In this document: piece by piece, positions 9,513 to 61,955 of the stretch | Position numbering within the stretch: the stretch's first letter is position 1 | Layout of the letters: each line of letters opens with the position of its first letter | Source of the DNA: Acidimicrobiia bacterium | GTDB taxonomy: Bacteria > Actinomycetota > Acidimicrobiia > Spongiisociales > ZC4RG35 | Assembly (NCBI GenBank): GCA_041744375.1 | Contig: JBGTLA010000095.1 | Coordinates: forward strand, 131,018 to 195,017 | DNA length: 64,000 nucleotides | Direction: 5' to 3' | Notes under the pieces: generated by a model | What the model was told of the DNA's origin: nothing | Databases searched by the model: none | Seen by the model: only the letters and a program-made list of their open reading frames with translations | Position numbers and translations under genes: made by a program

Positions 9513-10069
9513 TGGAGCCACTGGCTGCTCTCGAAGCGATCCTGTTCGTCACGGAAGCACCCGTTCCCGCCACGGAGCTGTCGGAGGTTCTCGAGGTCAC
9601 CATCGAGGAGGTCGAGGACCTCATCGAAGACCTGAAGGGCCATCTCGAGGAGAGAGGTTCGGGTCTGGTCGTGCGGTCGACGTCAGGCGGTTGGCGGCTC
9701 TATTCACGACCGGAGGCGTACCCCTACCTGGAGCGTTTCGCCACCTCAGCCACTGCTCGCAAGCTGTCTCCGGCGGCGCTCGAGGTGCTGGCTGTGGTGG
9801 CCTACCGCCAACCCGTGTCGCGGACACAGCTCGCCGAGATCCGAGGGGTGGACTCCGATTCGTCGCTGCGGACCCTGGTGCAGATGGGCCTCATCGAGGA
9901 GGCGGGACGTTTGACGATTCCCGGCAACCCGACCATCTACCGGACGAGTGACCTCTTCTTGGAGAAGCTGGGTCTCGGGTCGCTGGGTGACCTGCCACCT
10001 CTCGCCGACCATGTGCCCCCTGCCGCAGTGGTCGATGCCCTTGAAGAGACATTTCGCGGGGGTGGCTGA
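9500..10069 (+). CDS. scpB: segregation and condensation protein B
   Basis: LEAILFVTEAPV... motif and winged-helix repeats; overlaps the scpA stop (alternative starts at 9509/9512). Confidence 0.85.
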   Translation: MGSVMEPLAALEAILFVTEAPVPATELSEVLEVTIEEVEDLIEDLKGHLEERGSGLVVRSTSGGWRLYSRPEAYPYLERFATSATARKLSPAALEVLAVVAYRQPVSRTQLAEIRGVDSDSSLRTLVQMGLIEEAGRLTIPGNPTIYRTSDLFLEKLGLGSLGDLPPLADHVPPAAVVDALEETFRGGG

Positions 10070-10805
10070 AACGTCGTCACGGTCGGATCTCCCCAAGCTG
10101 CAAAAAGCCATCGCCCACAGCGGGATGATGTCGCGGAGAGCTGCCGAAGATCTGATCGCCCAGGGTCGGGTGGCCGTCGACGGTCGGGTGGCACTAATCG
10201 GAGAGCGCGTGGACCCCGCGTCGCAGGCCGTGACGGTGGACGGCGTGCGCATTCCTATCAGGCCCGGCCTCGTTACCTACCTGCTCTACAAACCGCAGGG
10301 GGCCATCTCAACGGCGGAGGACCCGGGCGGTAGGCCCACTGTCGTCGACCTGGTGCCGCCCGAGCCGAGCGTGTATCCGGTGGGACGGCTGGACGCCGAT
10401 TCCGAAGGCCTCCTCTTGCTCACCAATGACGGTGACCTCGCCAACATCGTCATGCACCCTCGCTACGGCATACCCAAGACCTACACCGTCTTGGTCAATG
10501 GGCCCCCCGGCCCGTGGGTTGAGTGCCTGGTGGAGGGGGTGGAGCTCTCGGACGGACCGGCCGCCGCCCTGTCGGCTCGGGTACTCGACTCGACGAGAGA
10601 GAGCACGCTGTTGGAGATGGTGCTGGGCGAGGGGAGAAACCGCGAGATCCGGCGCATGTGTGACGCACTCGAGCACCCGGTACAAAGACTGGTGCGAACC
10701 GCAGTAGGGCCGATCACCGATCGGCGTCTGCGTCCCGGTGAATGGCGACGGCTCGAAGTCGGGGAGGTGGAGCGTCTCTACGCCACCGCCGACCCGGTGG
10801 TTTGA
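10062..10805 (+). CDS. rluB: 23S rRNA pseudouridine synthase (RluB/RsuA family)
   Basis: S4 domain (LQKAIAHSGMMSRR) followed by PSU synthase motifs (GRLDADSEGLLLLTNDGDL); GTG start overlaps scpB by 8 nt. Confidence 0.85.
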   Translation: MAETSSRSDLPKLQKAIAHSGMMSRRAAEDLIAQGRVAVDGRVALIGERVDPASQAVTVDGVRIPIRPGLVTYLLYKPQGAISTAEDPGGRPTVVDLVPPEPSVYPVGRLDADSEGLLLLTNDGDLANIVMHPRYGIPKTYTVLVNGPPGPWVECLVEGVELSDGPAAALSARVLDSTRESTLLEMVLGEGRNREIRRMCDALEHPVQRLVRTAVGPITDRRLRPGEWRRLEVGEVERLYATADPVV

Positions 10806-15367: not shown

Positions 15368-15928
15368 TCACAGTGTTCTGCCCTGGTCGTCGATCCAGTC
15401 TTCCTCGTCGACGCCCAGCCCTTCGGCGATGCGGTTGATGTAGTTGAAGTAGGCACACACCTGTGTGGCGTCGGTGATAGCCCGGTCGTCCCAGCCGGCG
15501 GATCGAAGCGCTTCGATGTGTAGTTTCGTCACCGAGGAAGGAGAGCGGGTCAGGAGTTCGGCATACTCCAACAGGGCGCTGGTGGCTTCGTCGAGCCCCG
15601 CGCTTCGCCAATCGCGCCCGAAGGCGTCGACCATCGTGTCGTCTGCGACCTCGGCCCGGAGGTCGTGGAGATGGGCACCTATTCAATAGTGGCACTCGTT
15701 CACCTGGGACGTCACCACAGCGATCATCTCGCGCTGAGCGCGCGAGATCGGTGAGTCACAGAACATCGCTGCCCCGTAGAGGCGCATCGACTCACGCAGC
15801 GTCTCGGGGTTGTGGCATTGCACTGACACGATATTCCAGAGTCGTCCCGCAGACGTAGCCCTCTGCTCGTAGATTCTTTCCAGGAGTCCGTCGGCGTCAT
15901 CTCGGCCGACGACATCGATGTGAGCCAT
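15368..15928 (-). CDS. AhpD/CMD-family 'peroxidase-related enzyme', interrupted by an in-frame TGA at the second Cys of the CxxC motif (candidate selenoprotein; alternatively a pseudogene)
   Basis: Track ORFs 15683..15928 (...SQVNECHY) and 15368..15634 are in the same frame, separated only by TGA: NECHY-[TGA]-IGAHLHDLRAEV.... The AhpD core motif is C-x-x-C-x-x-A-H, so the TGA sits exactly at the second-Cys position. A hairpin (GACCUC-CGGGCC-GAGGUC) lies ~17 nt downstream. Confidence 0.5.
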
Positions 15929-16085: not shown

Positions 16086-17543
16086 TCAGCGAGGTCGCGA
16101 GATCATCTGGTCGACGGGGGCGAAGTCATCCCGAAGGTAGGCGGCACCGTCTATGAACCGATGGAGTTCATCGTGAACGGCCACGACTTCGGAGCCACCG
16201 CGTCCGGCGACAGAGGCACCGATGCCTTTGACGTCGATGCGGGCGTGCGAGCCGACGAGCACGAAGTTCCCACCCCCCTCGCCTCCCAGATAGTGAGGTG
16301 GGGCCAGGACGGCCGTGTGGTCGAAGACGGCGTCGATCGTGGCGGTGGCCGCCCGAGCGAATCGCAAGTCTCCGTAATCGATCAGATTGAGGAGATAGAT
16401 CCCCTCCGGTCCCAGGCGGCGGGCGACTTCGGTGACGAATTCCAGGGTTGTCAGATGCCACGGCACCGACAATCCGCTGAAGGCGTCGCCCATGATGAGG
16501 TCGGCCCACTCGAGCGGAACGTTCTGTAGCGAGCGGCGGGCGTCGTCGACGATCACCGTCGCCTCGGGGTCAAGCCCGAGGCGGGAGTGCCCGATGTCGA
16601 CCAGCAACCGGTCTATCTCCAGCACCACATGCTCTGTGCCGGGTCTGACGGCGTCCAGGTAGGCGCTGAAGGTGAACCCGCCTCCTCCGATGGACACGGC
16701 CCGCAGGGGCTCACCAGGCGCCGTGTGCTCGATCACGTCGCCCATGACCTGGGCGTACCTGAACTCGAGATGGGTCGGGTCGACGAGATCGACGTAGCTG
16801 TTGCGCACACCGTCGAGCCACAAGATCCGCCCGCTCGATCGGTCTGGGTCGATCTCGATGTCGGCGCAGTGATAGGTGGTCTCGTATTCGCACGGCCCGC
16901 CAAGCAAAACCAGTGCCGCAGCCAGTGCCACACTCCCCCCGCCGGCCCGGAGACGACCCCTCCCATGATGGCTCCAGAAGCCCAAACCCGCGACTATCAG
17001 AGCGGCCCCGACGGCGATAATGATCGGGCGCGTGGGGAAAGCTGCGATGAGGACAAAACCGGTGGTGAAAGTCCCGAAGATGGCCCCGGCGGTGCCGATG
17101 GCCGAGTACGACCCGACCACCGAGCCGGTCTCGTCCAGGCTGGCCAGTCGCAGCTTCACCACCACCGGGGGAACGGCCGACAGCACGGCGGCGGGAGCGA
17201 AGAAACCAAGCGTGGTGATGACCACGATGGCCAGCGGCCCGGCCGACGTTGAGGCCGGGCCGACCACATCGACGATCAAGGGGGATGCCAGCGCGGTGAG
17301 GCCCCCGGCTACCAGGAGGGGCCCCACCAGCCGGGAAGGATCGCCCCGGTCTGCTGCTGCTCCCCCGGCCCATGCACCCACGGCGATGCCGGCCAGGATC
17401 ACCCCGATGACGCCGGTGAAGACTTCGAGACTAACCCCGAGGTAAGGAGCCAGGAGCCGCTGAGCGAGGATCTCCAGTACCAGCACCGCCGCCGAGGTGG
17501 AGAAGACGAGAAGTCGAGCGGTCAGCTGTGACATGGGGGCCAC
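16086..17543 (-). CDS. fused polytopic membrane domain / spermidine synthase-like (PABS) protein
   Basis: N-terminal ~200 aa are highly hydrophobic (multi-TM). The C-terminal spermidine-synthase fold includes VSIGGGGFTFSAYL and DLIMGDAF. Confidence 0.7.
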   Translation of the reverse strand: MAPMSQLTARLLVFSTSAAVLVLEILAQRLLAPYLGVSLEVFTGVIGVILAGIAVGAWAGGAAADRGDPSRLVGPLLVAGGLTALASPLIVDVVGPASTSAGPLAIVVITTLGFFAPAAVLSAVPPVVVKLRLASLDETGSVVGSYSAIGTAGAIFGTFTTGFVLIAAFPTRPIIIAVGAALIVAGLGFWSHHGRGRLRAGGGSVALAAALVLLGGPCEYETTYHCADIEIDPDRSSGRILWLDGVRNSYVDLVDPTHLEFRYAQVMGDVIEHTAPGEPLRAVSIGGGGFTFSAYLDAVRPGTEHVVLEIDRLLVDIGHSRLGLDPEATVIVDDARRSLQNVPLEWADLIMGDAFSGLSVPWHLTTLEFVTEVARRLGPEGIYLLNLIDYGDLRFARAATATIDAVFDHTAVLAPPHYLGGEGGGNFVLVGSHARIDVKGIGASVAGRGGSEVVAVHDELHRFIDGAAYLRDDFAPVDQMISRPR

Positions 17544-18740: not shown

Positions 18741-19208
18741 TTAGACGGCAATCCGGGCCAGCTCGAGGATCTCGGCCCGCTCATTGGCGCGGTGGTCACG
18801 GCAGTAGATCGCGTCAAAGTCGAGGCGAACGTCGATGGCCTTCCCGCAAGTCGGGCAGCGAGCCGTCGTCGCCATGGCGTGAGGCAGAGACATTCGGCGG
18901 TCTCGCGCCCATTCGGCGACGGCATGATGCCTGCGCCTGGCGGCAAGCTCGCCCACAGCCATGACCACCATCGCCGCCAGGTCGAGCGGCGACTCCTCCC
19001 ACAACCAGAACCGCACTTCTAGGTGAGTGAGCCCGCCGTCGACACCGGACAGCAACCGCCCGGCCGGATACTCGCGAGCCCAGGCGACCACGTCCTCAGA
19101 GGTCCGACAGTCCGCCAAACCGGCGGCGATTAGCTGAGCCTCCTCGGGACCGACCCAACGTGACACGCCTTCCTCGAAGGTCGGGGATTTGGTCATCGGT
19201 CGGGGCAT
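18741..19208 (-). CDS. hypothetical protein with C-terminal zinc-ribbon-like motif
   Basis: The C-terminal ~155 aa of track ORF 18741..19517 look protein-like (CPTCGKAIDVRLDFDAIYCRDHRANERAEIL); the N-terminal part of the track ORF is Arg/Pro-rich GC artefact. Last gene of the element operon. Confidence 0.45.
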   Translation of the reverse strand: MPRPMTKSPTFEEGVSRWVGPEEAQLIAAGLADCRTSEDVVAWAREYPAGRLLSGVDGGLTHLEVRFWLWEESPLDLAAMVVMAVGELAARRRHHAVAEWARDRRMSLPHAMATTARCPTCGKAIDVRLDFDAIYCRDHRANERAEILELARIAV

Positions 19209-19576
19209 CACGACCACCGGGCCCTGGCCGCCTTGCGCGCCCTTTCGGAGGCCGAGAGGTTGTCCCACTCCGAGACCTCGGCCTGCGCCTCGGGAAGCCT
19301 TATCCGGCTTAAGAGTTGGGCGAGGAGAGACCGCTGCAGACGCAGCTCGACGACAGCCGGGTGAGTGATCGGAGTTCCGGCCGCGTTCGTCGTGGTCAGC
19401 GGCGCAACGGCCACTTCGGCCTCGAGGCGGGCCACGAGATCGGCGGTCCGAGCGGCCTCTTCGAGCACTTTTAACTCGTCTTCGCGCCACAAATAGCCCC
19501 GTTGCAGGCGCCTCCACAACGCCTTTCCGGCCCGCCCCAACCCCAGAGGAGCCCTAAGTGGCTTGGTATCGGCCAC
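19208..19576 (-). CDS. terminase small-subunit-like protein (P27-family-like), tentative
   Basis: 122 aa; the pattern ...KALWRRLQRGYLWREDELKVLEEAARTADLVARLEAEV...THPAVVELRLQRSLLAQLL resembles P27-family TerS. Position matches the terS slot of PICI packaging modules. Confidence 0.45.
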   Translation of the reverse strand: MADTKPLRAPLGLGRAGKALWRRLQRGYLWREDELKVLEEAARTADLVARLEAEVAVAPLTTTNAAGTPITHPAVVELRLQRSLLAQLLSRIRLPEAQAEVSEWDNLSASERARKAARARWS

Positions 19577-19692: not shown

Positions 19693-20523
19693 TCACTGCC
19701 GGGCCGCCTCCATCTCGCGGGTCCGTATCTCGAGGTCGAGGCGGTCACGCCGGTTGTCCTCGTGACCCTTGTGCTTTTGCTCCTGCGTTTGCCGTGACCG
19801 TGTGCGACTGGCGGCGGCGGTTGCGGTGGCCTCGGCCTCGCTGGGGGTGGCGAGGTGGAGCCGGAAGCCGGCCTCGATGAGGGCCAGCCATTTGCGGCCC
19901 AGGTGGGCGGCCCGGTCTAGGTCGTCTTGGGTGAGGTCCTTGCCCGTGATCCACCAGGTTGGCGATTCCTCCCGCGGACCGAACCGATACGTTTCGGCGA
20001 GCGAGGAACGTACTCGGGCGATGGCGGTGAGCTCGGCGGTGGCGGTGGCCCGACGGGTGTGGGTGTCGGTGAGGGTGGGGTCGGCGAGGGTGTGGCGGGC
20101 TCGGGTGGGGAGGGCGACCCCGGTGGTGGCTGCCAGGTCGTCGGCGGCGGTGGCGAAGCGGGGCTGTAGTTCAGAGATGATGGCGTCGCCGTGGTCTCGG
20201 ACCGCTCGGGCGGTGGCCTTGGACAAGGCGGCGACAACCTGGCGGTGGATTGCCTCAGCGGCTTCCTTTGCCGTCTGGGCGCGAGCCGTATCGAGGAATC
20301 GGTCAGCGGCGTCGTCGGGCTCGAGGGTCCCGTCGATGATGGCGGCGGCGAGGTCCTCAGCGGGCGAGACGGCGCTGGCCGCGGAGATGGCGGCTGAGAT
20401 CTTGGCGAGCCGGTCAAGGCCGGGCACCTCGATGTCGAGGTCGTCGAAAGTGGCGAGGGCACGGGCGGGGTCGATCGGGTGGAACATGAGTGGCCTTTCA
20501 GAATCGGTTGCGGGGGATGCCAA
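19693..20523 (-). CDS. hypothetical protein (element accessory gene)
   Basis: 276 aa with ordinary amino-acid composition and a coiled-coil C-terminus; follows the 108-aa gene in the same operon. Confidence 0.5.
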   Translation of the reverse strand: MASPATDSERPLMFHPIDPARALATFDDLDIEVPGLDRLAKISAAISAASAVSPAEDLAAAIIDGTLEPDDAADRFLDTARAQTAKEAAEAIHRQVVAALSKATARAVRDHGDAIISELQPRFATAADDLAATTGVALPTRARHTLADPTLTDTHTRRATATAELTAIARVRSSLAETYRFGPREESPTWWITGKDLTQDDLDRAAHLGRKWLALIEAGFRLHLATPSEAEATATAAASRTRSRQTQEQKHKGHEDNRRDRLDLEIRTREMEAARQ

Positions 20524-20824
20524 GTTTTTCGTGGATGGCTCGTTCGAGTGGGTCGCCGTTGAGCGCTAGCGCCGGCGGTTCGGATCCTGATCGGAGCGGG
20601 GGTGATGGTGCCTGTGTTTCCTCGTCGTACCTTTCGGGGCCTGGCCTCGGTGGGACCTTGGCGGCGAGGAGGGCAGCGAGCCCGTCGCTCGCTGGGGCGA
20701 AGGTGGCGGCGAGTTCGTCGGCCTCCTCAACGGTTTCCGCTAGGTGCCTGAGGCTGGCGGCTTCGGGGAGACCGAGGCCGTGCCGGTGGGCGATCTCAGC
20801 GGCCTCTATTGCAGTGATTCCCAT
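20498..20824 (-). CDS. hypothetical small protein
   Basis: Only the C-terminal 108 aa (from MGITAIEAAEI...) of track ORF 20498..21388 look genuine; the upstream part is Pro/Arg/Ser low-complexity. Confidence 0.4.
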   Translation of the reverse strand: MGITAIEAAEIAHRHGLGLPEAASLRHLAETVEEADELAATFAPASDGLAALLAAKVPPRPGPERYDEETQAPSPPLRSGSEPPALALNGDPLERAIHEKLGIPRNRF

Positions 20825-27759: not shown

Positions 27760-27834
27760 TTTCTGCCGGTCGGGCCGGCGGGATTCGAACCCACGACCTC
27801 TTGACCCCCAGTCAAGCGCGCTACCAAGCTGCGC
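27760..27834 (-). tRNA. tRNA-Pro (anticodon GGG)
   Basis: Hand-folded cloverleaf: acceptor CGGGCCG/CGGCCCG; D-arm GCGC-AGCUUGGUA-GCGC; anticodon arm CUUGA-CUGGGGG-UCAAG (U33, GGG, G37); variable loop AGGUC; T-arm GUGGG-UUCGAAU-CCCGC; discriminator A; CC encoded. Confidence 0.85.
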
Positions 27835-27919
27835 CACGGCCCGTGTCGGGGGTATCGTAGCGGTTCGCCCGGCGGCTGTGTTGACGGCGGCCCGGGCGGT
27901 ACCCCGCCCACGGAGGCTC

Positions 27920-28588: not shown

Positions 28589-28731
28589 CCATGGGAGGGG
28601 GCGGATAGAGACGGGCTGCCGGAAATCGGAGCTGTCCAAGGCAGTGCCCCATGGGTTGGGCCGGCGATGTATCTCTGGAGGCCCTCTCATTCCCCGGGGT
28701 CGAGTGCCGGCGCCGGAGGTAGGCTTGGGAG

Positions 28732-29313
28732 GTGGGCGAACGAATCCTCACGATCCCGAACCTTGTCTCGGCAGCTCGTTTGGCGGCGATCCCCTATTTC
28801 TGGTGGGTTCTGTTGAGCGAGCAAAGGGTGGGCCTGGCGGCCGCACTCATCTTTGTGATCGGCTCGACCGACTGGGTGGATGGGTACCTGGCGCGCCGAC
28901 TCGACCAGGTCACCGAGTTGGGCAAGATCCTTGACCCGGTGGCCGACCGGCTGATGATCGCCTCGGCGTTGGTGGGTGGCCTCCTGGCCGGGGTCATCCC
29001 CGCCGTCTTCGGCTGGCTCCTCATCGTGCGTGAGGTCGTCGTGGTCGTCGGGGGGCTGGTCCTGGCAGGACGGGGGATGGGCAAACTCGTGGTCCGTCCC
29101 CTCGGCAAGGTGGCGACGTTCCTCCTGTACGGTGCCATACCGTCTTTCTACCTCGTGGCGGCCGACATCGCACCGTGGCTGTTCGCCCCACCGGCCTGGA
29201 TCGGTGGCTTCGTCGGTGTCGTCCTCTATTGGTGGGTGGGCGTCGAGTACGCGCTTGACATGAGGTCTTCCATGGTGTCGGTACAGTCTTCGGCCACGAA
29301 CCAGGAGGTGTGA
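28732..29313 (+). CDS. pgsA: CDP-alcohol phosphatidyltransferase (PgsA-like)
   Basis: D-x2-DG-x2-AR...G-x3-D-x3-D motif (STDWVDGYLARR...LDPVADRLM); multi-TM. Confidence 0.8.
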   Translation: MGERILTIPNLVSAARLAAIPYFWWVLLSEQRVGLAAALIFVIGSTDWVDGYLARRLDQVTELGKILDPVADRLMIASALVGGLLAGVIPAVFGWLLIVREVVVVVGGLVLAGRGMGKLVVRPLGKVATFLLYGAIPSFYLVAADIAPWLFAPPAWIGGFVGVVLYWWVGVEYALDMRSSMVSVQSSATNQEV

Positions 29314-29694
29314 GTGAACGTCCCGGACCAGTTGCGTTACACAGAAGAGCACGAGTGGATTGAAGTCGCCGAGGGCGACGCGTTACGTATCGGCATCACC
29401 GATTACGCCCAGGATCAGCTCGGTGACGTGGTGTTCGTGGAACTGCCCGTGTCGGGAGCCGAAGTGGGGGCGGGGGAGATGTTCGCCGAGGTCGAGTCGA
29501 CCAAGTCGGTGGCAGAGGTGTACGCCCCGGTGGCCGGCGTGGTCGAAGCCGTGAACGACGCCCTGGCCGACAACCCCGACCTGGTGAACACGGACCCTTA
29601 TGGTGACGGATGGTTCGTGGTCCTGCGTCCCTCCGATCCCTTGGACCCCGCCGCCTTCTTGGACGCGGCGGGGTATCGGAGCCTCATCGAGTGA
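29314..29694 (+). CDS. gcvH: glycine cleavage system H protein
   Basis: Lipoyl-lysine motif AEVESTKSVAEVYAPVAG; 126 aa. Confidence 0.9.
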   Translation: MNVPDQLRYTEEHEWIEVAEGDALRIGITDYAQDQLGDVVFVELPVSGAEVGAGEMFAEVESTKSVAEVYAPVAGVVEAVNDALADNPDLVNTDPYGDGWFVVLRPSDPLDPAAFLDAAGYRSLIE

Positions 29695-29736
29695 ACCGCT
29701 CGGGCTCGGAAGGATGAGCGCCTCTACAATCGTCTC

Positions 29737-30195
29737 ATGAGATGTCCCAGCTGCGAGGCCGAAATCACCGCAGATGCGAACTTCTGCCCTAGCTGTGGGG
29801 CCGAGATCGAGGCCGACCCGACCGTGGTGTACCTCCCCCTCGACGATCGCCGACAGCATCCGCTGACACCCGCCGAAGCAGCCAGTGTCGAGGGTATTCG
29901 CGGCTTCGCTCTGGTCGTGGAGCGGGGCCCGCGCAGCGGAATGACCTTCGTTCTCAACCCGGGCATGACCACGGTCGGCCGACACCCCGAATCGGACATT
30001 TTCTTGGACGACGTGACGGTGTCACGCCACCACTGCCGGTTTGTGATCGACGATGGCAACCTGTCGGTCGAAGACTCGGGTTCGACCAACGGTACCTATG
30101 TCAACGACGCCCGTGTCGACAGCTCGAATCTGTCGGCGGGCGACGAGGTGCTGGTGGGAAGGTTCCGTTTCCTCGTCGTTCACGGCGATGTCTGA
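29737..30195 (+). CDS. FHA-domain protein (GarA-like position) with N-terminal zinc ribbon
   Basis: CPSCEAEITADANFCPSCGAEI followed by an FHA domain (TTVGRHPESDIFLDDVTVSRHHCRF...NGTYVN). Confidence 0.75.
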   Translation: MRCPSCEAEITADANFCPSCGAEIEADPTVVYLPLDDRRQHPLTPAEAASVEGIRGFALVVERGPRSGMTFVLNPGMTTVGRHPESDIFLDDVTVSRHHCRFVIDDGNLSVEDSGSTNGTYVNDARVDSSNLSAGDEVLVGRFRFLVVHGDV

Positions 30196-53525: not shown

Positions 53526-53548
53526 GGTGGAAGTGAGCTACCAGCGTA

Positions 53549-55036
53549 GTGAATCGGCCGACATTCCCGACGTTGGGCCCACCCGTCGGTAGCATTCGGC
53601 CTCGTCGTCGATCCAGGTTTCCTGTGCTCTTCCCGACCATCCAGTTCGCCCTGTTCTTCGTGGTGGTGCTGACCGCCAACTGGCTACTGCTTCCCCATCG
53701 ACAGCGGTGGAAAGGGTTCATGCTGGCCGCCAGCTACGTCTTCTATGGGGCGTGGGACTGGCGCTTCATTCTGCTCATCATGACGTCGACTCTCCTCAAC
53801 CAGGCGGCGGCGACGGTCATGAGTCGCACCGAGGATCACGGGCGAAGGAGAGCGGCGGTGATCTCGGCGGTGGCGGCCAACCTCGGGATCCTGGGTTGGT
53901 TCAAGTACTACGGATTCTTCGTGAGTTCGGCGCTCAACCTGTTCAACAGCATCGGCGTGGAGTTGCCTCTGCCCTTGCTGCAGGTCACGCTGCCGGTGGG
54001 TATTTCGTTCTTCACCTTCCAGGCTCTCTCCTATGTCATCGACATCTACCGGGGGGAACAGGACAAGGCCCCCCTCTTGGACTTTGCGGTGTACCTGGCG
54101 TTCTTTCCGCAATTGGTCGCCGGTCCGATCGTCCGCAGCCGAGAGTTCTTGCCTCAACTCCACGGTCCCAAGGACCCGCGTGCCGTCGATGCCACCCGGG
54201 CCTTTGGGTTGATCGCAGGCGGACTGTTCAAGAAGGTCGTCGTGGCCAACACCTTGGCCACGACCATCGTCGACCCTGTCTTTGCCTCGCCAGGTCAGTT
54301 CAGCGCCCTGGAAGTCCTGATGGCGGTCTACGGGTACGCTGTCCAGATCTACGCCGACTTCTCGGGATACACCGACATCGCCATCGGCGTCGCCCTCTTG
54401 ATGGGCTTCAGATTCCCCGACAACTTCAACTCGCCGTACACCGCCGTCTCCATCCAGGACTTCTGGCGCCGGTGGCACATGACCCTCAGCCGATGGCTGC
54501 GCGATTATCTGTACATCCCGTTGGGAGGGAATCGCGACGGGCGAGCGGCCACCTATAGGAACCTGTCTCTCACCATGCTTTTGGGAGGGCTCTGGCACGG
54601 GGCGGCGTGGACATTTGTGCTGTGGGGAGCATTCCACGGGGGCCTGTTGGCCTGGGAGAGGTACCGGGGTGAGATGACGGCCCACCAGCCTGCCGTCGAA
54701 ACCCCGCTGAACCGAGCCGTCAGTCGCCTGGCGACGTTCCATCTCGTGTGTCTCGGGTGGGTCCTCTTCCGAGCCGACTCCCTCGGTCATGTGGGTGAGA
54801 TCCTCTCTCGACTCCTAGACTGGGGAGCGGCCCCGGCCGTGACTCCGGCGGTGTTGTTGCTGGTGGCGGGTGGGATCGGCGTCCAATACGTGCCCACCGA
54901 CTTCCGAGCCAGGCTGCAGGCGGGATTTGCCCGATTGGGGCCGGTAACGATGACGGCGGCGTTGGGAGTGTTCCTCTTGATCCTGGACGGGCTCGGGCCT
55001 GAAGGGGTTGCTCCATTCATCTATTTCCAGTTCTGA
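53549..55036 (+). CDS. MBOAT family membrane-bound O-acyltransferase (AlgI/PatA-like)
   Basis: Multi-TM; MBOAT catalytic His region (...FWRRWHMTLSRWLRDYLYIPLGG...). An alternative GTG start at 53624 is possible. Confidence 0.8.
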   Translation: MNRPTFPTLGPPVGSIRPRRRSRFPVLFPTIQFALFFVVVLTANWLLLPHRQRWKGFMLAASYVFYGAWDWRFILLIMTSTLLNQAAATVMSRTEDHGRRRAAVISAVAANLGILGWFKYYGFFVSSALNLFNSIGVELPLPLLQVTLPVGISFFTFQALSYVIDIYRGEQDKAPLLDFAVYLAFFPQLVAGPIVRSREFLPQLHGPKDPRAVDATRAFGLIAGGLFKKVVVANTLATTIVDPVFASPGQFSALEVLMAVYGYAVQIYADFSGYTDIAIGVALLMGFRFPDNFNSPYTAVSIQDFWRRWHMTLSRWLRDYLYIPLGGNRDGRAATYRNLSLTMLLGGLWHGAAWTFVLWGAFHGGLLAWERYRGEMTAHQPAVETPLNRAVSRLATFHLVCLGWVLFRADSLGHVGEILSRLLDWGAAPAVTPAVLLLVAGGIGVQYVPTDFRARLQAGFARLGPVTMTAALGVFLLILDGLGPEGVAPFIYFQF

Positions 55037-55039
55037 TTC

Positions 55040-56056
55040 ATGGATCAATCCGACACGAGATCTCCGGTCAGCTTGCGGCGCTCGATGCCCGCCGGCATCG
55101 CCCTATTCGTGACGATCGGGGCGCTGATCCTCGGTCTCCTGCTCAATGCGGCCGATATCCGACGGACGGCCGAGCGGCAACCTCTCGGATGGCAGCGATC
55201 GGTGGCTGTGGCACTCGTCGAGCCGGTTTACCACGTCAGCACCTTCTTGCGTCTCGACCGGCCCCGAGCGGCGCTGGACTCGGCCATGGGCCGTGAGACG
55301 GCCCTGCCTCCGGCCACCCAATCCCCGGAGGTCACTCCGTCGGCACCGAGCACCACGTCCACCAGCTTGGCGGTGACGACCACCACCGTTCCCGGTAGGC
55401 GGGTGGTGACCGAGGAAGAACCCCTCGTGATGTACATCGGTGGGGACTCGATGGTGGGCCAGTTCGGCCCCATGCTGCAGAACCGTGCCAACCGCAGCGG
55501 AATGGTGGACTCCGAGTTCGTGTACGAATTCGAGTCCGGCCTCAGCCGCCCCGATTTCGTGGACTGGCCGGAGCGGCTCGACGGGGTCCGCGAGGAGCTG
55601 GACCCAGATGTCTTCGTGCTTTACTTCGGCGGCAACGACGCCCAGGCCATCTACATGCCCGACGGTACCTGGATTCCCTTCGACACACCGGAGTGGGAAG
55701 CCGAGTATCGACGGCGGGTGGCTGAAGTCATGTCCACGCTCGACGCGGACGGGCGCTGGGTCTACTGGATGGGCATGCCCATAGTCCAGTCGGAGACCTT
55801 CCGACCGCGAGTGGAGCTGATGAACTCGGTCTATGAGAGTGTGGCAGACGAATACACCCGGGTCACCTTTGTCGAGTCCTGGTCGGTATTCGTGGATGCC
55901 GATGGGAACTACAGCGAGTATCTACGCGACGAGAGTGGGGACCTGGTCGACATGCGGCTCAACGATGGAGTCCACTTCACCACAGCCGGCGCCATCCGTT
56001 TGGCCGAAGTCTTCTACGGCGTGCTGGCCGGCGACTGGGACCTGCCCTTGGACTAA
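55040..56056 (+). CDS. SGNH/DUF459 hydrolase (AlgJ/PatB-like partner of MBOAT)
   Basis: N-terminal TM, Thr-rich linker, SGNH block GGDSMVG and a C-terminal DxxH-like region (NDGVHFT). Confidence 0.65.
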   Translation: MDQSDTRSPVSLRRSMPAGIALFVTIGALILGLLLNAADIRRTAERQPLGWQRSVAVALVEPVYHVSTFLRLDRPRAALDSAMGRETALPPATQSPEVTPSAPSTTSTSLAVTTTTVPGRRVVTEEEPLVMYIGGDSMVGQFGPMLQNRANRSGMVDSEFVYEFESGLSRPDFVDWPERLDGVREELDPDVFVLYFGGNDAQAIYMPDGTWIPFDTPEWEAEYRRRVAEVMSTLDADGRWVYWMGMPIVQSETFRPRVELMNSVYESVADEYTRVTFVESWSVFVDADGNYSEYLRDESGDLVDMRLNDGVHFTTAGAIRLAEVFYGVLAGDWDLPLD

Positions 56057-59730: not shown

Positions 59731-59875
59731 CGCTCATCCAGAGCGGCGGAGGGACAGGCCCTGTGAAGCCGCGGCAACCGGCCGGATCGGTGACAACCGA
59801 ATCGGACCACGGTGCCAATGCCTGATCGATGAATGCTTCGGCGGAAGTTACCGCTCGAAGCGCTCTGACTGGAGC
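59731..59875 (+). promoter_or_regulatory. SAM-I (S-box) riboswitch
   Basis: gCUCAUCcAGAGcGGCGGAGGGACaGGCCCugUGAAGCCgCGGCAACC...GGUGCCAAUgCCUG...GAUGAA matches the SAM-I consensus (P1-P4, kink-turn region, GGUGCCAAU). P1 closes with CUGGAGCG. Lies upstream of osmC-like/metY. Confidence 0.75.
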
Positions 59876-60073
59876 GTAACAAGCGAGCAAGAGGAACCAC
59901 CGCCATGACACACCCCCACTCCCCCACCTTCCTCCCGCCGGTCTCTGTGTCGGCACCCATGTACATGCCCGGGCTCCGGGCGCCATGTCTCTGTACCCAC
60001 TGACTCACCGCACCGCCCGCGAGCACAGGCCCTGCGGTGAGCCATCTGCAGACTTATCCACTACATGGAGGAC

Positions 60074-60594
60074 ACATGACCACTACCTACACATTGAATG
60101 AAGTCGATATCGCCACCGTCGCCGCCCTGACAGAAGCAGTGACGGCAGACCCCTCGGCCGCTCTCACCACTTGGAGCGCCGACGTGAGATGGACAGGGGG
60201 GTTCCGGAGCGAGGCGAGCATCGGCGACCACACGCCCATCCCCTCCGACGAGCCAACCGGCCTCGGGGGAACTGCCACCGCCCCCAATCCCGTCGAGCAG
60301 GTGCTGGGAGCCTTCGGCAATTGCTTGGCGGTGGGGATCGCGGCCAACGCCACCGCCCGGAACATCCAGATCGAGGAACTCAGCATTTCGGTGACCGGCG
60401 ACCTCGATCTGCGGTGCTTCCTCGGCGTGACGGAGGGTCACGCCGGATTCGATGCCATCCGCGCCAGCGTCTACCTCGACACCACAGCCGAAGCGGAGGC
60501 GGTCGACGACCTGATCCGACACGTCGTGGCGACATCCCCGGTGGGCCACACGCTGGCCGGCGCCATTCCGGTGAACGTGACCCGAGACGAGTAA
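60074..60594 (+). CDS. OsmC-family protein
   Basis: GGAGG RBS before the ATG; OsmC/Ohr fold with ...LGAFGNCLAV... Cys motif. Confidence 0.7.

Positions 60595-60644: not shown

Positions 60645-61955
<1,311 letters not shown>

Follow-up and report, generated by a model that had tools for sequence, protein, structure and literature searches.

A probable AhpD-like (TIGR01926) selenoprotein gene with a C-x-x-U motif and a SECIS-like hairpin written in conserved peptide codons

Within a 64-kb stretch of bacterial DNA (64,000 nucleotides; henceforth the window, by which we mean the whole of the stretch that was analyzed), we uncovered a minus-strand coding sequence at 15368..15928, spanning 186 codons, for an AhpD-like protein of the TIGR01926 family that is interrupted by one stop codon, a TGA best read as a selenocysteine (Sec) codon. 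The frame opens with an ATG at 15928..15926 (minus strand), giving an N-terminus (MAHIDV..) that agrees with the starts of the orthologues, and is closed by a terminal TGA at 15370..15368 (minus strand). Its sole internal stop is the TGA at codon 82 (15685..15683, minus strand), which stands at the second position of a C-H-Y-U motif. In translation, the context of this codon reads ...REMIAVVTSQVNECHY-[TGA]-IGAHLHDLRAEVADDTMVDAF..., with N-E-C-H-Y-[TGA]-I-G-A-H as the core motif. The open reading frames listed for the interval, namely 15683..15928 (81 aa) and 15368..15634 (88 aa), share one common frame; indeed, as the initial annotation had proposed for these adjacent minus-strand ORFs, they make up a single frame with one internal TGA in the context VTSQVNECHY*IGAHLHDLRAEVADDTMVDAF. 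GC3 is 0.80 over the last 50 codons ahead of the TGA and 0.78 over the first 50 beyond it, and hence both flanks are coding-like in this frame, in a window with a G+C content of ~65% throughout. TGA closes 40 of the 44 high-GC3 stop-to-stop segments and is thus the main stop codon in the window. No second selenoprotein candidate, that is, a further in-frame TGA with a coding signal on both sides, was found in the 64 kb. Five other in-frame-TGA matches in the window proved to be ordinary gene junctions, such as those involving CDP-alcohol phosphatidyltransferase, GcvH and FHA at 28723..30195 and 53537..56056.

The gene lies downstream of that for a 485-aa membrane protein (16086..17543) without a match in Pfam, which shares its strand, and it converges on der/engA (the GTPase gene der). 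The same arrangement is seen in its closest relative, which comes from an Acidimicrobiaceae MAG. No gene for an E2 component, a peroxiredoxin, AhpC or another redox partner adjoins the window gene.

Profile and structure comparisons were performed with the 186-aa protein in which U was replaced by C. It matches the NCBIfam model TIGR01926 (“peroxidase-related enzyme”) with 136.2 bits against a cutoff of 81.8, with residues 3-176 aligned to positions 2-176 of the 178 in the model, and the Pfam CMD domain (PF02627) over residues 41-124 with 51 bits against a gathering score of 23 (E = 1.5e-13), which bears out the earlier placement of the gene in the AhpD/CMD family as a peroxidase-related enzyme. 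Three other models scored below their cutoffs: canonical AhpD (TIGR00777) with 25.1 bits, far under its cutoff of 191.95, the Sec-containing AhpD relative NF041238 (AhpD_rel_CFYUT) with 59.3 against 175, and the YciW-related selenoprotein NF053654 with 24.9 against 310. The nearest solved structures are 2oyo, 6k40, 3c1l, 2pfx and 2prr (E = 4e-18 to 3e-24). Four of these, 2oyo and 2pfx (both labeled “uncharacterized peroxidase-related protein”), 6k40 (“Alkyl hydroperoxide reductase AhpD”) and 3c1l (Mlr4105), align over residues ~7-173 of the window protein with E = 1e-22 to 3e-24; they are clearly diverged from it (89 bits over ~156 residues) and have Cys where it has Sec, in the second position of the motif. 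In 2oyo and 6k40 the TGA falls on the second Cys of the CxxC motif (N-R-C-x-Y-C-A-V-S-H against N-E-C-H-Y-U-I-G-A-H), and the alignment with the Cys homologues likewise places it there, in accord with the position given by the initial annotation.

The active-site segment (15671..15730, minus strand) displays, in both sequence and spacing, the proton-relay residues of AhpD-type proteins as known from PA0269 and the Mycobacterium tuberculosis AhpD. These are Glu67 (15730..15728) and His86 (15673..15671) at proton-relay positions and Cys79 (15694..15692) as the first Cys of C-x-x-U, all on the minus strand, with Tyr81 and Sec82 lying between Cys79 and His86. The spacing E-x11-C-x-Y-U-x3-H is identical to that in the relays of PA0269 (Glu36/Cys48/Tyr50/Cys51/His55) and M. 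tuberculosis AhpD (Glu118/Cys130/His132/Cys133/His137) (PMC3141380). Both the R-E-M and the C-x-Y motifs are present in every relative. In selenoenzymes, Sec usually occupies the attacking position. The same can be said of Sec82, given that the second Cys of M. tuberculosis AhpD, Cys133, is the exposed nucleophile that attacks Cys61 of AhpC (PMC6626918). Hence, the replaced residue, which had been taken for a resolving Cys, is instead the counterpart of the nucleophile that attacks the partner.

When 5.8 billion proteins were searched, full-length homologues made up a minority of the matches. Dozens of the matches were ~102-110 aa long and covered half of the query, yet showed a higher identity to it (60-73%). 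These short matches are C-terminal fragments that start directly past the site (MRAHLHDLR...), and N-terminal fragments (P0033 and P0101) correspondingly end in ...VNECHY. Such half-length fragments imply that the selenoprotein gene has been split in two by gene callers. A candidate replacement of Sec by Trp in two database proteins with “CHYW” at the site (P0001 and P0017) was rejected, as their DNA reads TGA and had been translated with another code.

With the C-terminal alignment as the query, a search of one genome per species (GTDB representatives) yielded 533 relatives, of which the best 80 loci were taken with their flanks. These best 80 of 533 stem mainly from Acidimicrobiia MAGs, and the other taxa among them include Acidobacteriota/Bryobacterales, Anaerolineae, Gemmatimonadales, Phycisphaerae, Myxococcota and Nitriliruptorales. 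At the DNA level, the identical codon (C-x-Y-TGA) is TGA in 76 of the 79 loci with a locatable site among these best 80 of 533; in one locus (L058) the motif was not located, the N-terminal half being seemingly absent. Addition of the JGI contig coding for P0001 (L083) brings the related TGA loci to 77, and the window gene makes 78 sequences. Thus, aligned over the orthologues, the site is TGA in 77 related loci and TGC in three, and none of them has TAA or TAG, a pattern that supports the selenoprotein reading offered in the initial annotation. The three TGC loci (L073, L078 and L079) constitute a distant subclade with the context S-T-R-Y-C, in which the first Cys is gone. Cys is also found at the site in the database proteins P0024 and P0093, and one further locus (L084, coding for P0003) has a genuine CGA with the hairpin described below still intact. 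The nearest relatives of the window gene all have TGA. Across the related loci the protein sequence is strongly conserved both before and after the TGA, and the window protein retains 24 of the 24 invariant columns of the C-terminal alignment.

Downstream of the UGA and within the coding sequence lies a SECIS-like hairpin at 15646..15665 (minus strand), delineated by folding, RNAalifold, codon usage and pairing. Its 7-bp stem is formed by a 5′ arm CGACCUC (15665..15659) and a 3′ arm GAGGUCG (15652..15646), which enclose a 6-nt loop CGGGCC (15658..15653), all on the minus strand. The spacer from the UGA to the stem is 17 nt, the isolated hairpin has a dG of -10.5 kcal/mol, and its sequence is encoded by the codons of H-D-L-R-A-E-V. 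A hairpin ~17 nt past the UGA had been predicted beforehand: both its position and its sequence hold, and its stem is longer by one base pair than had been claimed. In being in-ORF, with a 17-nt spacer and a G-containing 6-nt loop, it fits the description of the bacterial SECIS as an in-ORF stem-loop just past the UGA whose small apical loop has a G (PMC1088965). Taken alone, the hairpin stands out only mildly: some 2.8% of the TGA triplets of the strand have a perfect 7-bp hairpin that begins 8-30 nt downstream, and the 86-nt fold around the UGA is no better than that of shuffled sequences (z = -0.18). Searches against Rfam, both of the whole window at the gathering score and of 15500..15800 at E <= 10, retrieved no SECIS family and only chance matches; bacterial SECIS elements are poorly represented in Rfam, according to a preprint on Actinomarina (bioRxiv 10.64898/2026.04.03.716425). 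The evidence that rises above chance is comparative.

Over the 78 TGA sequences the hairpin is almost invariant, while the proteins share only 55-75% identity. As its bases also spell a conserved peptide (H-D-L-R-x-E-V), codon counts over the 78 sequences, set against the background in the same genes, were needed to separate conservation of the RNA from that of the peptide. The Leu of the hairpin is CTC in 76 of 78 sequences (background CTC 36%), the Val is GTC in 70 of 72 and never GTG (background GTG 41%), the Arg is CGG in 64 and CGT in 14 and never CGC (background CGC 30%), and the Glu is GAG in all 78 (background GAG 76%). The restriction of the Arg codon to CGG or CGU fixes the second loop base as G and limits the third to G or U. 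A control Leu three codons upstream is spelled CTC 12, CTG 27, TTG 6, CTT 5, CTA 8 and TTA 4 times and is replaced by another residue in 16 sequences, and a control His four codons past the TGA is CAC in 40 and CAT in 38. The synonymous sites are thus frozen within the hairpin and free just upstream, which, like the conserved TGA, supports the selenoprotein reading.

The pairing itself can also be followed across the relatives. Four loci (L026, L031, L059 and L064) have a compensatory change of GAC..GUC to GAU..AUC, which preserves the pairing. Of the cells in the proposed structure 98.8% are paired, a share that drops to 19-50% if the 3′ arm is displaced by 1-3 columns, and RNAalifold independently predicted the same seven pairs from the 78 sequences. 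True covariation is thin, with four compensatory cells in two of the seven pairs, for the hairpin is almost invariant. In the Cys forms the 5′ arm reads GAUUUC or GACUAU, and the stem is weakened by wobble pairs (L073) or partly broken (L078 and L079). The hairpin sequence overlaps the conserved peptide motif D-L-R-x-E-V, in whose codons the SECIS stem is wholly written; hence, RNA and protein constraints may be locked together here, which is possibly why the peptide motif persists.

We detected no gene for SelA, SelB, SelD or tRNA-Sec within the 64-kb window. ARAGORN found a tRNA-Pro(GGG) as the only tRNA of the window, and no tRNA-Sec there or in 60 related loci; scans for the G1 box of SelB and the [C/U]GCK motif of SelD in the window and in all the related loci with their flanks likewise produced nothing credible. 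The presence of selA, selB, selC and selD in 84 of 84 complete genomes of Actinomarina, of another acidimicrobiial order, Actinomarinales (bioRxiv 10.64898/2026.04.03.716425), places the Sec pathway within the class Acidimicrobiia. Judging by the intact state of both the gene and its SECIS and by the behavior of its relatives, we infer that the source organism probably decodes Sec.

We hold with high confidence that the TGA is a genuine Sec codon in the gene for a functional AhpD-like (TIGR01926, C-x-x-U) thiol/selenol oxidoreductase, with strong support for the fold, for the motif and for the assignment of Sec. The alternatives each draw on some of the above observations. That the gene belongs to a true selenoprotein family but terminates at codon 82, in an organism that has lost the Sec machinery, would agree with the lack of Sec machinery genes and tRNA-Sec in the window, with the lack of another in-frame-TGA candidate in the 64 kb, and with the replacement of the site in some lineages, as exemplified by the CGA-bearing locus with its intact hairpin. 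However, the window copy retains every invariant C-terminal residue and the exact consensus hairpin, its GC3 stays at 0.78 past the TGA, and its syntenic closest relative is arranged alike, whereas sel genes are not to be expected in 64 kb sampled from a several-Mb genome; such a relic is accordingly improbable. Still less probable is that an ordinary AhpD-like gene of the Cys type has recently acquired a nonsense mutation, or that its TGC or TGG was misread as TGA in sequencing, which would leave a pseudogene or an artifact: though a single substitution separates TGA from both TGC and TGG, and Cys forms do exist (the three TGC loci and the two database proteins), TGA recurs at precisely this codon in 77 independent loci spread over many phyla, it is found in all the nearest relatives, and the Cys forms make up the distant subclade that lacks the first Cys, while the “W” of certain database forms is TGA under another code and not TGG. 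The same recurrence in 77 other loci effectively excludes the freshly inactivated redox gene that the initial annotation had entertained.

Equally slim is the chance that the TGA is a true stop between two small genes, whose products of 81 aa (N-terminal) and ~88-104 aa (C-terminal) assemble non-covalently. The halves are annotated separately in many assemblies, and in 15 of the 78 sequences the codon past the TGA is GTG or ATG. Yet in the other 63 it is no ATG, GTG or TTG start (it is ATA, ATC, ATT, ACN, GTC or GTA), and the first start codon in the window lies 17 codons downstream, past His86; a split at this point would cut the helix bearing the CxxC/His active site at the catalytic residue, and the exclusive use of TGA (77 TGA and no TAA or TAG) is unexpected of a plain stop. 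A genome-wide reassignment of UGA to Trp or Gly, which would make this an ordinary sense codon and could call upon the W at this position in some JGI gene calls (P0001 and P0017), is the least credible of all, as 40 of the 44 high-GC3 stop-to-stop segments close with TGA, the site aligns with the catalytic Cys and not with Trp or Gly, and the window has no other coding-like in-frame TGA.

Under the favored reading of the TGA as a Sec codon, UGA codon 82 would be decoded as Sec during translation, with the 7-bp stem-loop 17 nt downstream recruiting SelB along with Sec-tRNA(Sec), a role suggested by the conserved RNA element. The predicted product is an all-helical CMD-fold protein of ~20 kDa, in which Sec82 would stand in for the exposed Cys that acts as nucleophile (Cys133 in M. 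tuberculosis AhpD), Cys79 would serve as its resolving partner, and Glu67, Tyr81 and His86 would provide the proton relay. Sec82 could then attack either an oxidized partner, such as the sulfenate or disulfide of a peroxiredoxin, or a peroxide; resolution of the intermediate by Cys79 would generate a Cys79-Sec82 selenenylsulfide, and the enzyme might be regenerated by the dihydrolipoyl arm of the E2 component of a 2-oxoacid dehydrogenase or by another dithiol. It would most likely function as a redox adaptor or a weak hydroperoxidase that reduces a peroxiredoxin-type partner or peroxide. As regards the partner, the reductant and the function, this scheme is what we infer from the homologues.

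The relatives of the window gene display a distinct neighborhood. The start of the AhpD-like gene abuts the stop codon of a gene for a dihydrolipoamide acyltransferase (E2), part of a 2-oxoacid dehydrogenase operon, in 33 of 79 relatives, the three Cys forms among them. The linked E2 genes code for the lipoyl (PF00364), PF02817 and PF00198 domains; in 27 loci the gene for an E1 component was found upstream of that for E2, and in 32 loci a serine carboxypeptidase-like gene lies downstream of the AhpD-like gene. The mycobacterial AhpD is recycled via Lpd and the lipoyl-bearing E2 SucB (PMC6626918), and the linkage in these other genomes, as opposed to the window, suggests a lipoamide-based reductant for the Sec-containing proteins too. 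It is possible, though we put this forward tentatively and regard it as rather doubtful, that an antioxidant relay driven by lipoamide has the Sec-containing AhpD-like protein as its terminal acceptor, making this relay a selenium-dependent counterpart of the mycobacterial Lpd-SucB-AhpD-AhpC system, with the window copy having moved out of the operon. If true, this would be a relay hitherto undescribed for the AhpD-like selenoprotein family.

The family itself has been known for some time. In 2005, Zhang et al. described a new selenoprotein family in the Sargasso Sea data, the AhpD-like proteins with CxxU, represented by 27 sequences in COG2128 (PMC1088965), and “AhpD-like 1” (COG2128, CxxU) ranked as the fourth most abundant family in the GOS data in 2008, with 299 sequences (PMC2398784). 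These 299 sequences, and its presence in nearly all of the best 80 of the 533 species-level matches, are at odds with the initial description of the family as sparsely sampled. A 2026 review has the entry “AhpD-like protein | TIGR01926 | CxxU” (PMC13188914), and as the window gene matches the very model named there, it is a member of the catalogued family. The catalogued selenoproteins and the window protein share the same HMM, Sec at the second Cys, a stem-loop with a G in the loop and the existence of Cys homologues; the former come mostly from marine metagenomes and the relatives found here mostly from Acidimicrobiia MAGs, and there is no essential difference between them.

The M. tuberculosis AhpD (Rv2429; TIGR00777) is a Cys-x-x-Cys adaptor that reduces AhpC via lipoamide on SucB/DlaT and Lpd. 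The window protein resembles it in the CMD fold, in the spacing of Glu/Cys/x/Cys/His and in having the second Cys (here Sec) at the position of the nucleophile, and the linkage to E2 genes in the 33 of 79 relatives echoes the link between AhpD and SucB. Unlike the M. tuberculosis protein, it has Sec, scores merely 25 bits with TIGR00777, lacks an ahpC neighbor and bears the active-site helices in the N-terminal half of its ~186 aa. A more remote likeness is to the N-terminal domain of the eukaryotic sestrins (PA26, PF04636), with weak similarity over the AhpD-like helical core (PDB 5dj4, E = 2e-8); the PA26 match, at 26 bits, is under the Pfam cutoff of 29.4, and the sestrins, in contrast to the window protein, are 480-aa multi-domain proteins and not selenoproteins.

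Thus, the family was already known, as were its motif and its type of SECIS, the window gene represents neither a new kind nor a new variant, and the current understanding of selenoproteins is unchanged by the finding. What is modestly new is that the SECIS stem is tied, codon by codon, to a conserved peptide motif, and that the gene is linked to E2 operons in relatives. For annotation, the consequence is that a single selenoprotein gene, its internal TGA marked as Sec, should replace the two short ORFs; more generally, members of this family are often mis-annotated in public data, either as fragments of ~100 aa or as false “CHYW” proteins in which the TGA was read as Trp. For the organism, most likely an Acidimicrobiia bacterium, the reading predicts that it has selA, selB, selC and selD and needs selenium. 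For the family, which is widespread and uncharacterized, the E2 linkage provides an idea as to what the physiological reductant might be.

Among the best 80 of 533 loci related to the AhpD-like gene, the only Cys forms are L073, L078 and L079, with the motif S-T-R-Y-C: Cys is kept at the second motif position, Thr stands in place of the first Cys, and the stem beyond it, with GAUUUC or GACUAU as its 5' arm, is degenerate. In one further relative, the database protein P0003 (L084:820-920, Logan SRR14116348), the TGA is replaced by CGA (Arg), and the hairpin GACCUCCGGGCCGAGGUC is unbroken; possible explanations are a read error, a recent loss of selenocysteine and inactivity of this copy. A third set of apparent variants, with Trp in the active site, was rejected: P0001 (L083:86-652) and P0017 (L085:588-1046) carry “CHYW” or “CEYW” in the protein database, where JGI gene calls read TGA as Trp, and the DNA shows TGA in both. 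These proteins are thus annotation artefacts of the same AhpD-like selenoprotein, and P0002 is probably another of this kind. Finally, the AhpD-like protein of the related locus L058 (about 10001-10276) is recognizable only over its C-terminal ~92 residues and is preceded by an unrelated frame, so that it looks like a truncated copy or a pseudogene.

The species-level representative genomes contain no near-identical copy of the window's AhpD-like gene, the best match being that of the Acidimicrobiaceae MAG L018 at 75%. The two share the adjoining gene, which codes for a 485-aa polytopic membrane protein (16086-17543, -) with no Pfam match at E <= 1e-3; the same holds for the ORFs farther upstream at 19208-19576 (-) and 19693-20565 (-). 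An exact match to the window's GcvH protein occurs only on short Logan contigs (L081, L082) from the runs SRR28170463 and SRR28170462, an indication of the kind of sample in which the organism lives. The sole tRNA in the window is tRNA-Pro(GGG) (27768-27843, -); two relatives likewise carry it at a distance of a few kb from their AhpD-like gene (L018:5346-5421 and L004:7563-7639), which hints that regional synteny is partly conserved. Elsewhere in the window, the ORFs 60004..60594 and 60645..61955 are preceded by a SAM riboswitch (RF00162, 72.5 bits; 59731-59835, +). Two runs show genes in one frame with a TGA alone between them: a CDP-alcohol phosphatidyltransferase, GcvH (29314-29694, +) and a zinc-ribbon-FHA protein at 28723-30195 (+), and a membrane O-acyltransferase-like protein with its downstream neighbor at 53537-56056 (+). 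Read-through was rejected for both, as each gene has its own start codon; hence, these are ordinary gene junctions.

In the window and L018 the AhpD-like gene is not linked to a gene for the E2 component of 2-oxoacid dehydrogenases. Such linkage is seen in 33 of 79 related loci (including L012, L019, L020, L024, L025 and L028), where the stop codon of an E2 gene encoding lipoyl, E3-binding and catalytic domains adjoins the AhpD-like start; in L025, for example, the region concerned extends from that start back to a point ~1.7 kb before the TGA. The Cys forms are likewise positioned behind the E2 gene. In 27 loci there is an E1 gene farther upstream, and in 32 a Peptidase_S10-like gene downstream. 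This arrangement in relatives suggests a lipoamide-linked redox relay for the AhpD-like (seleno)protein.
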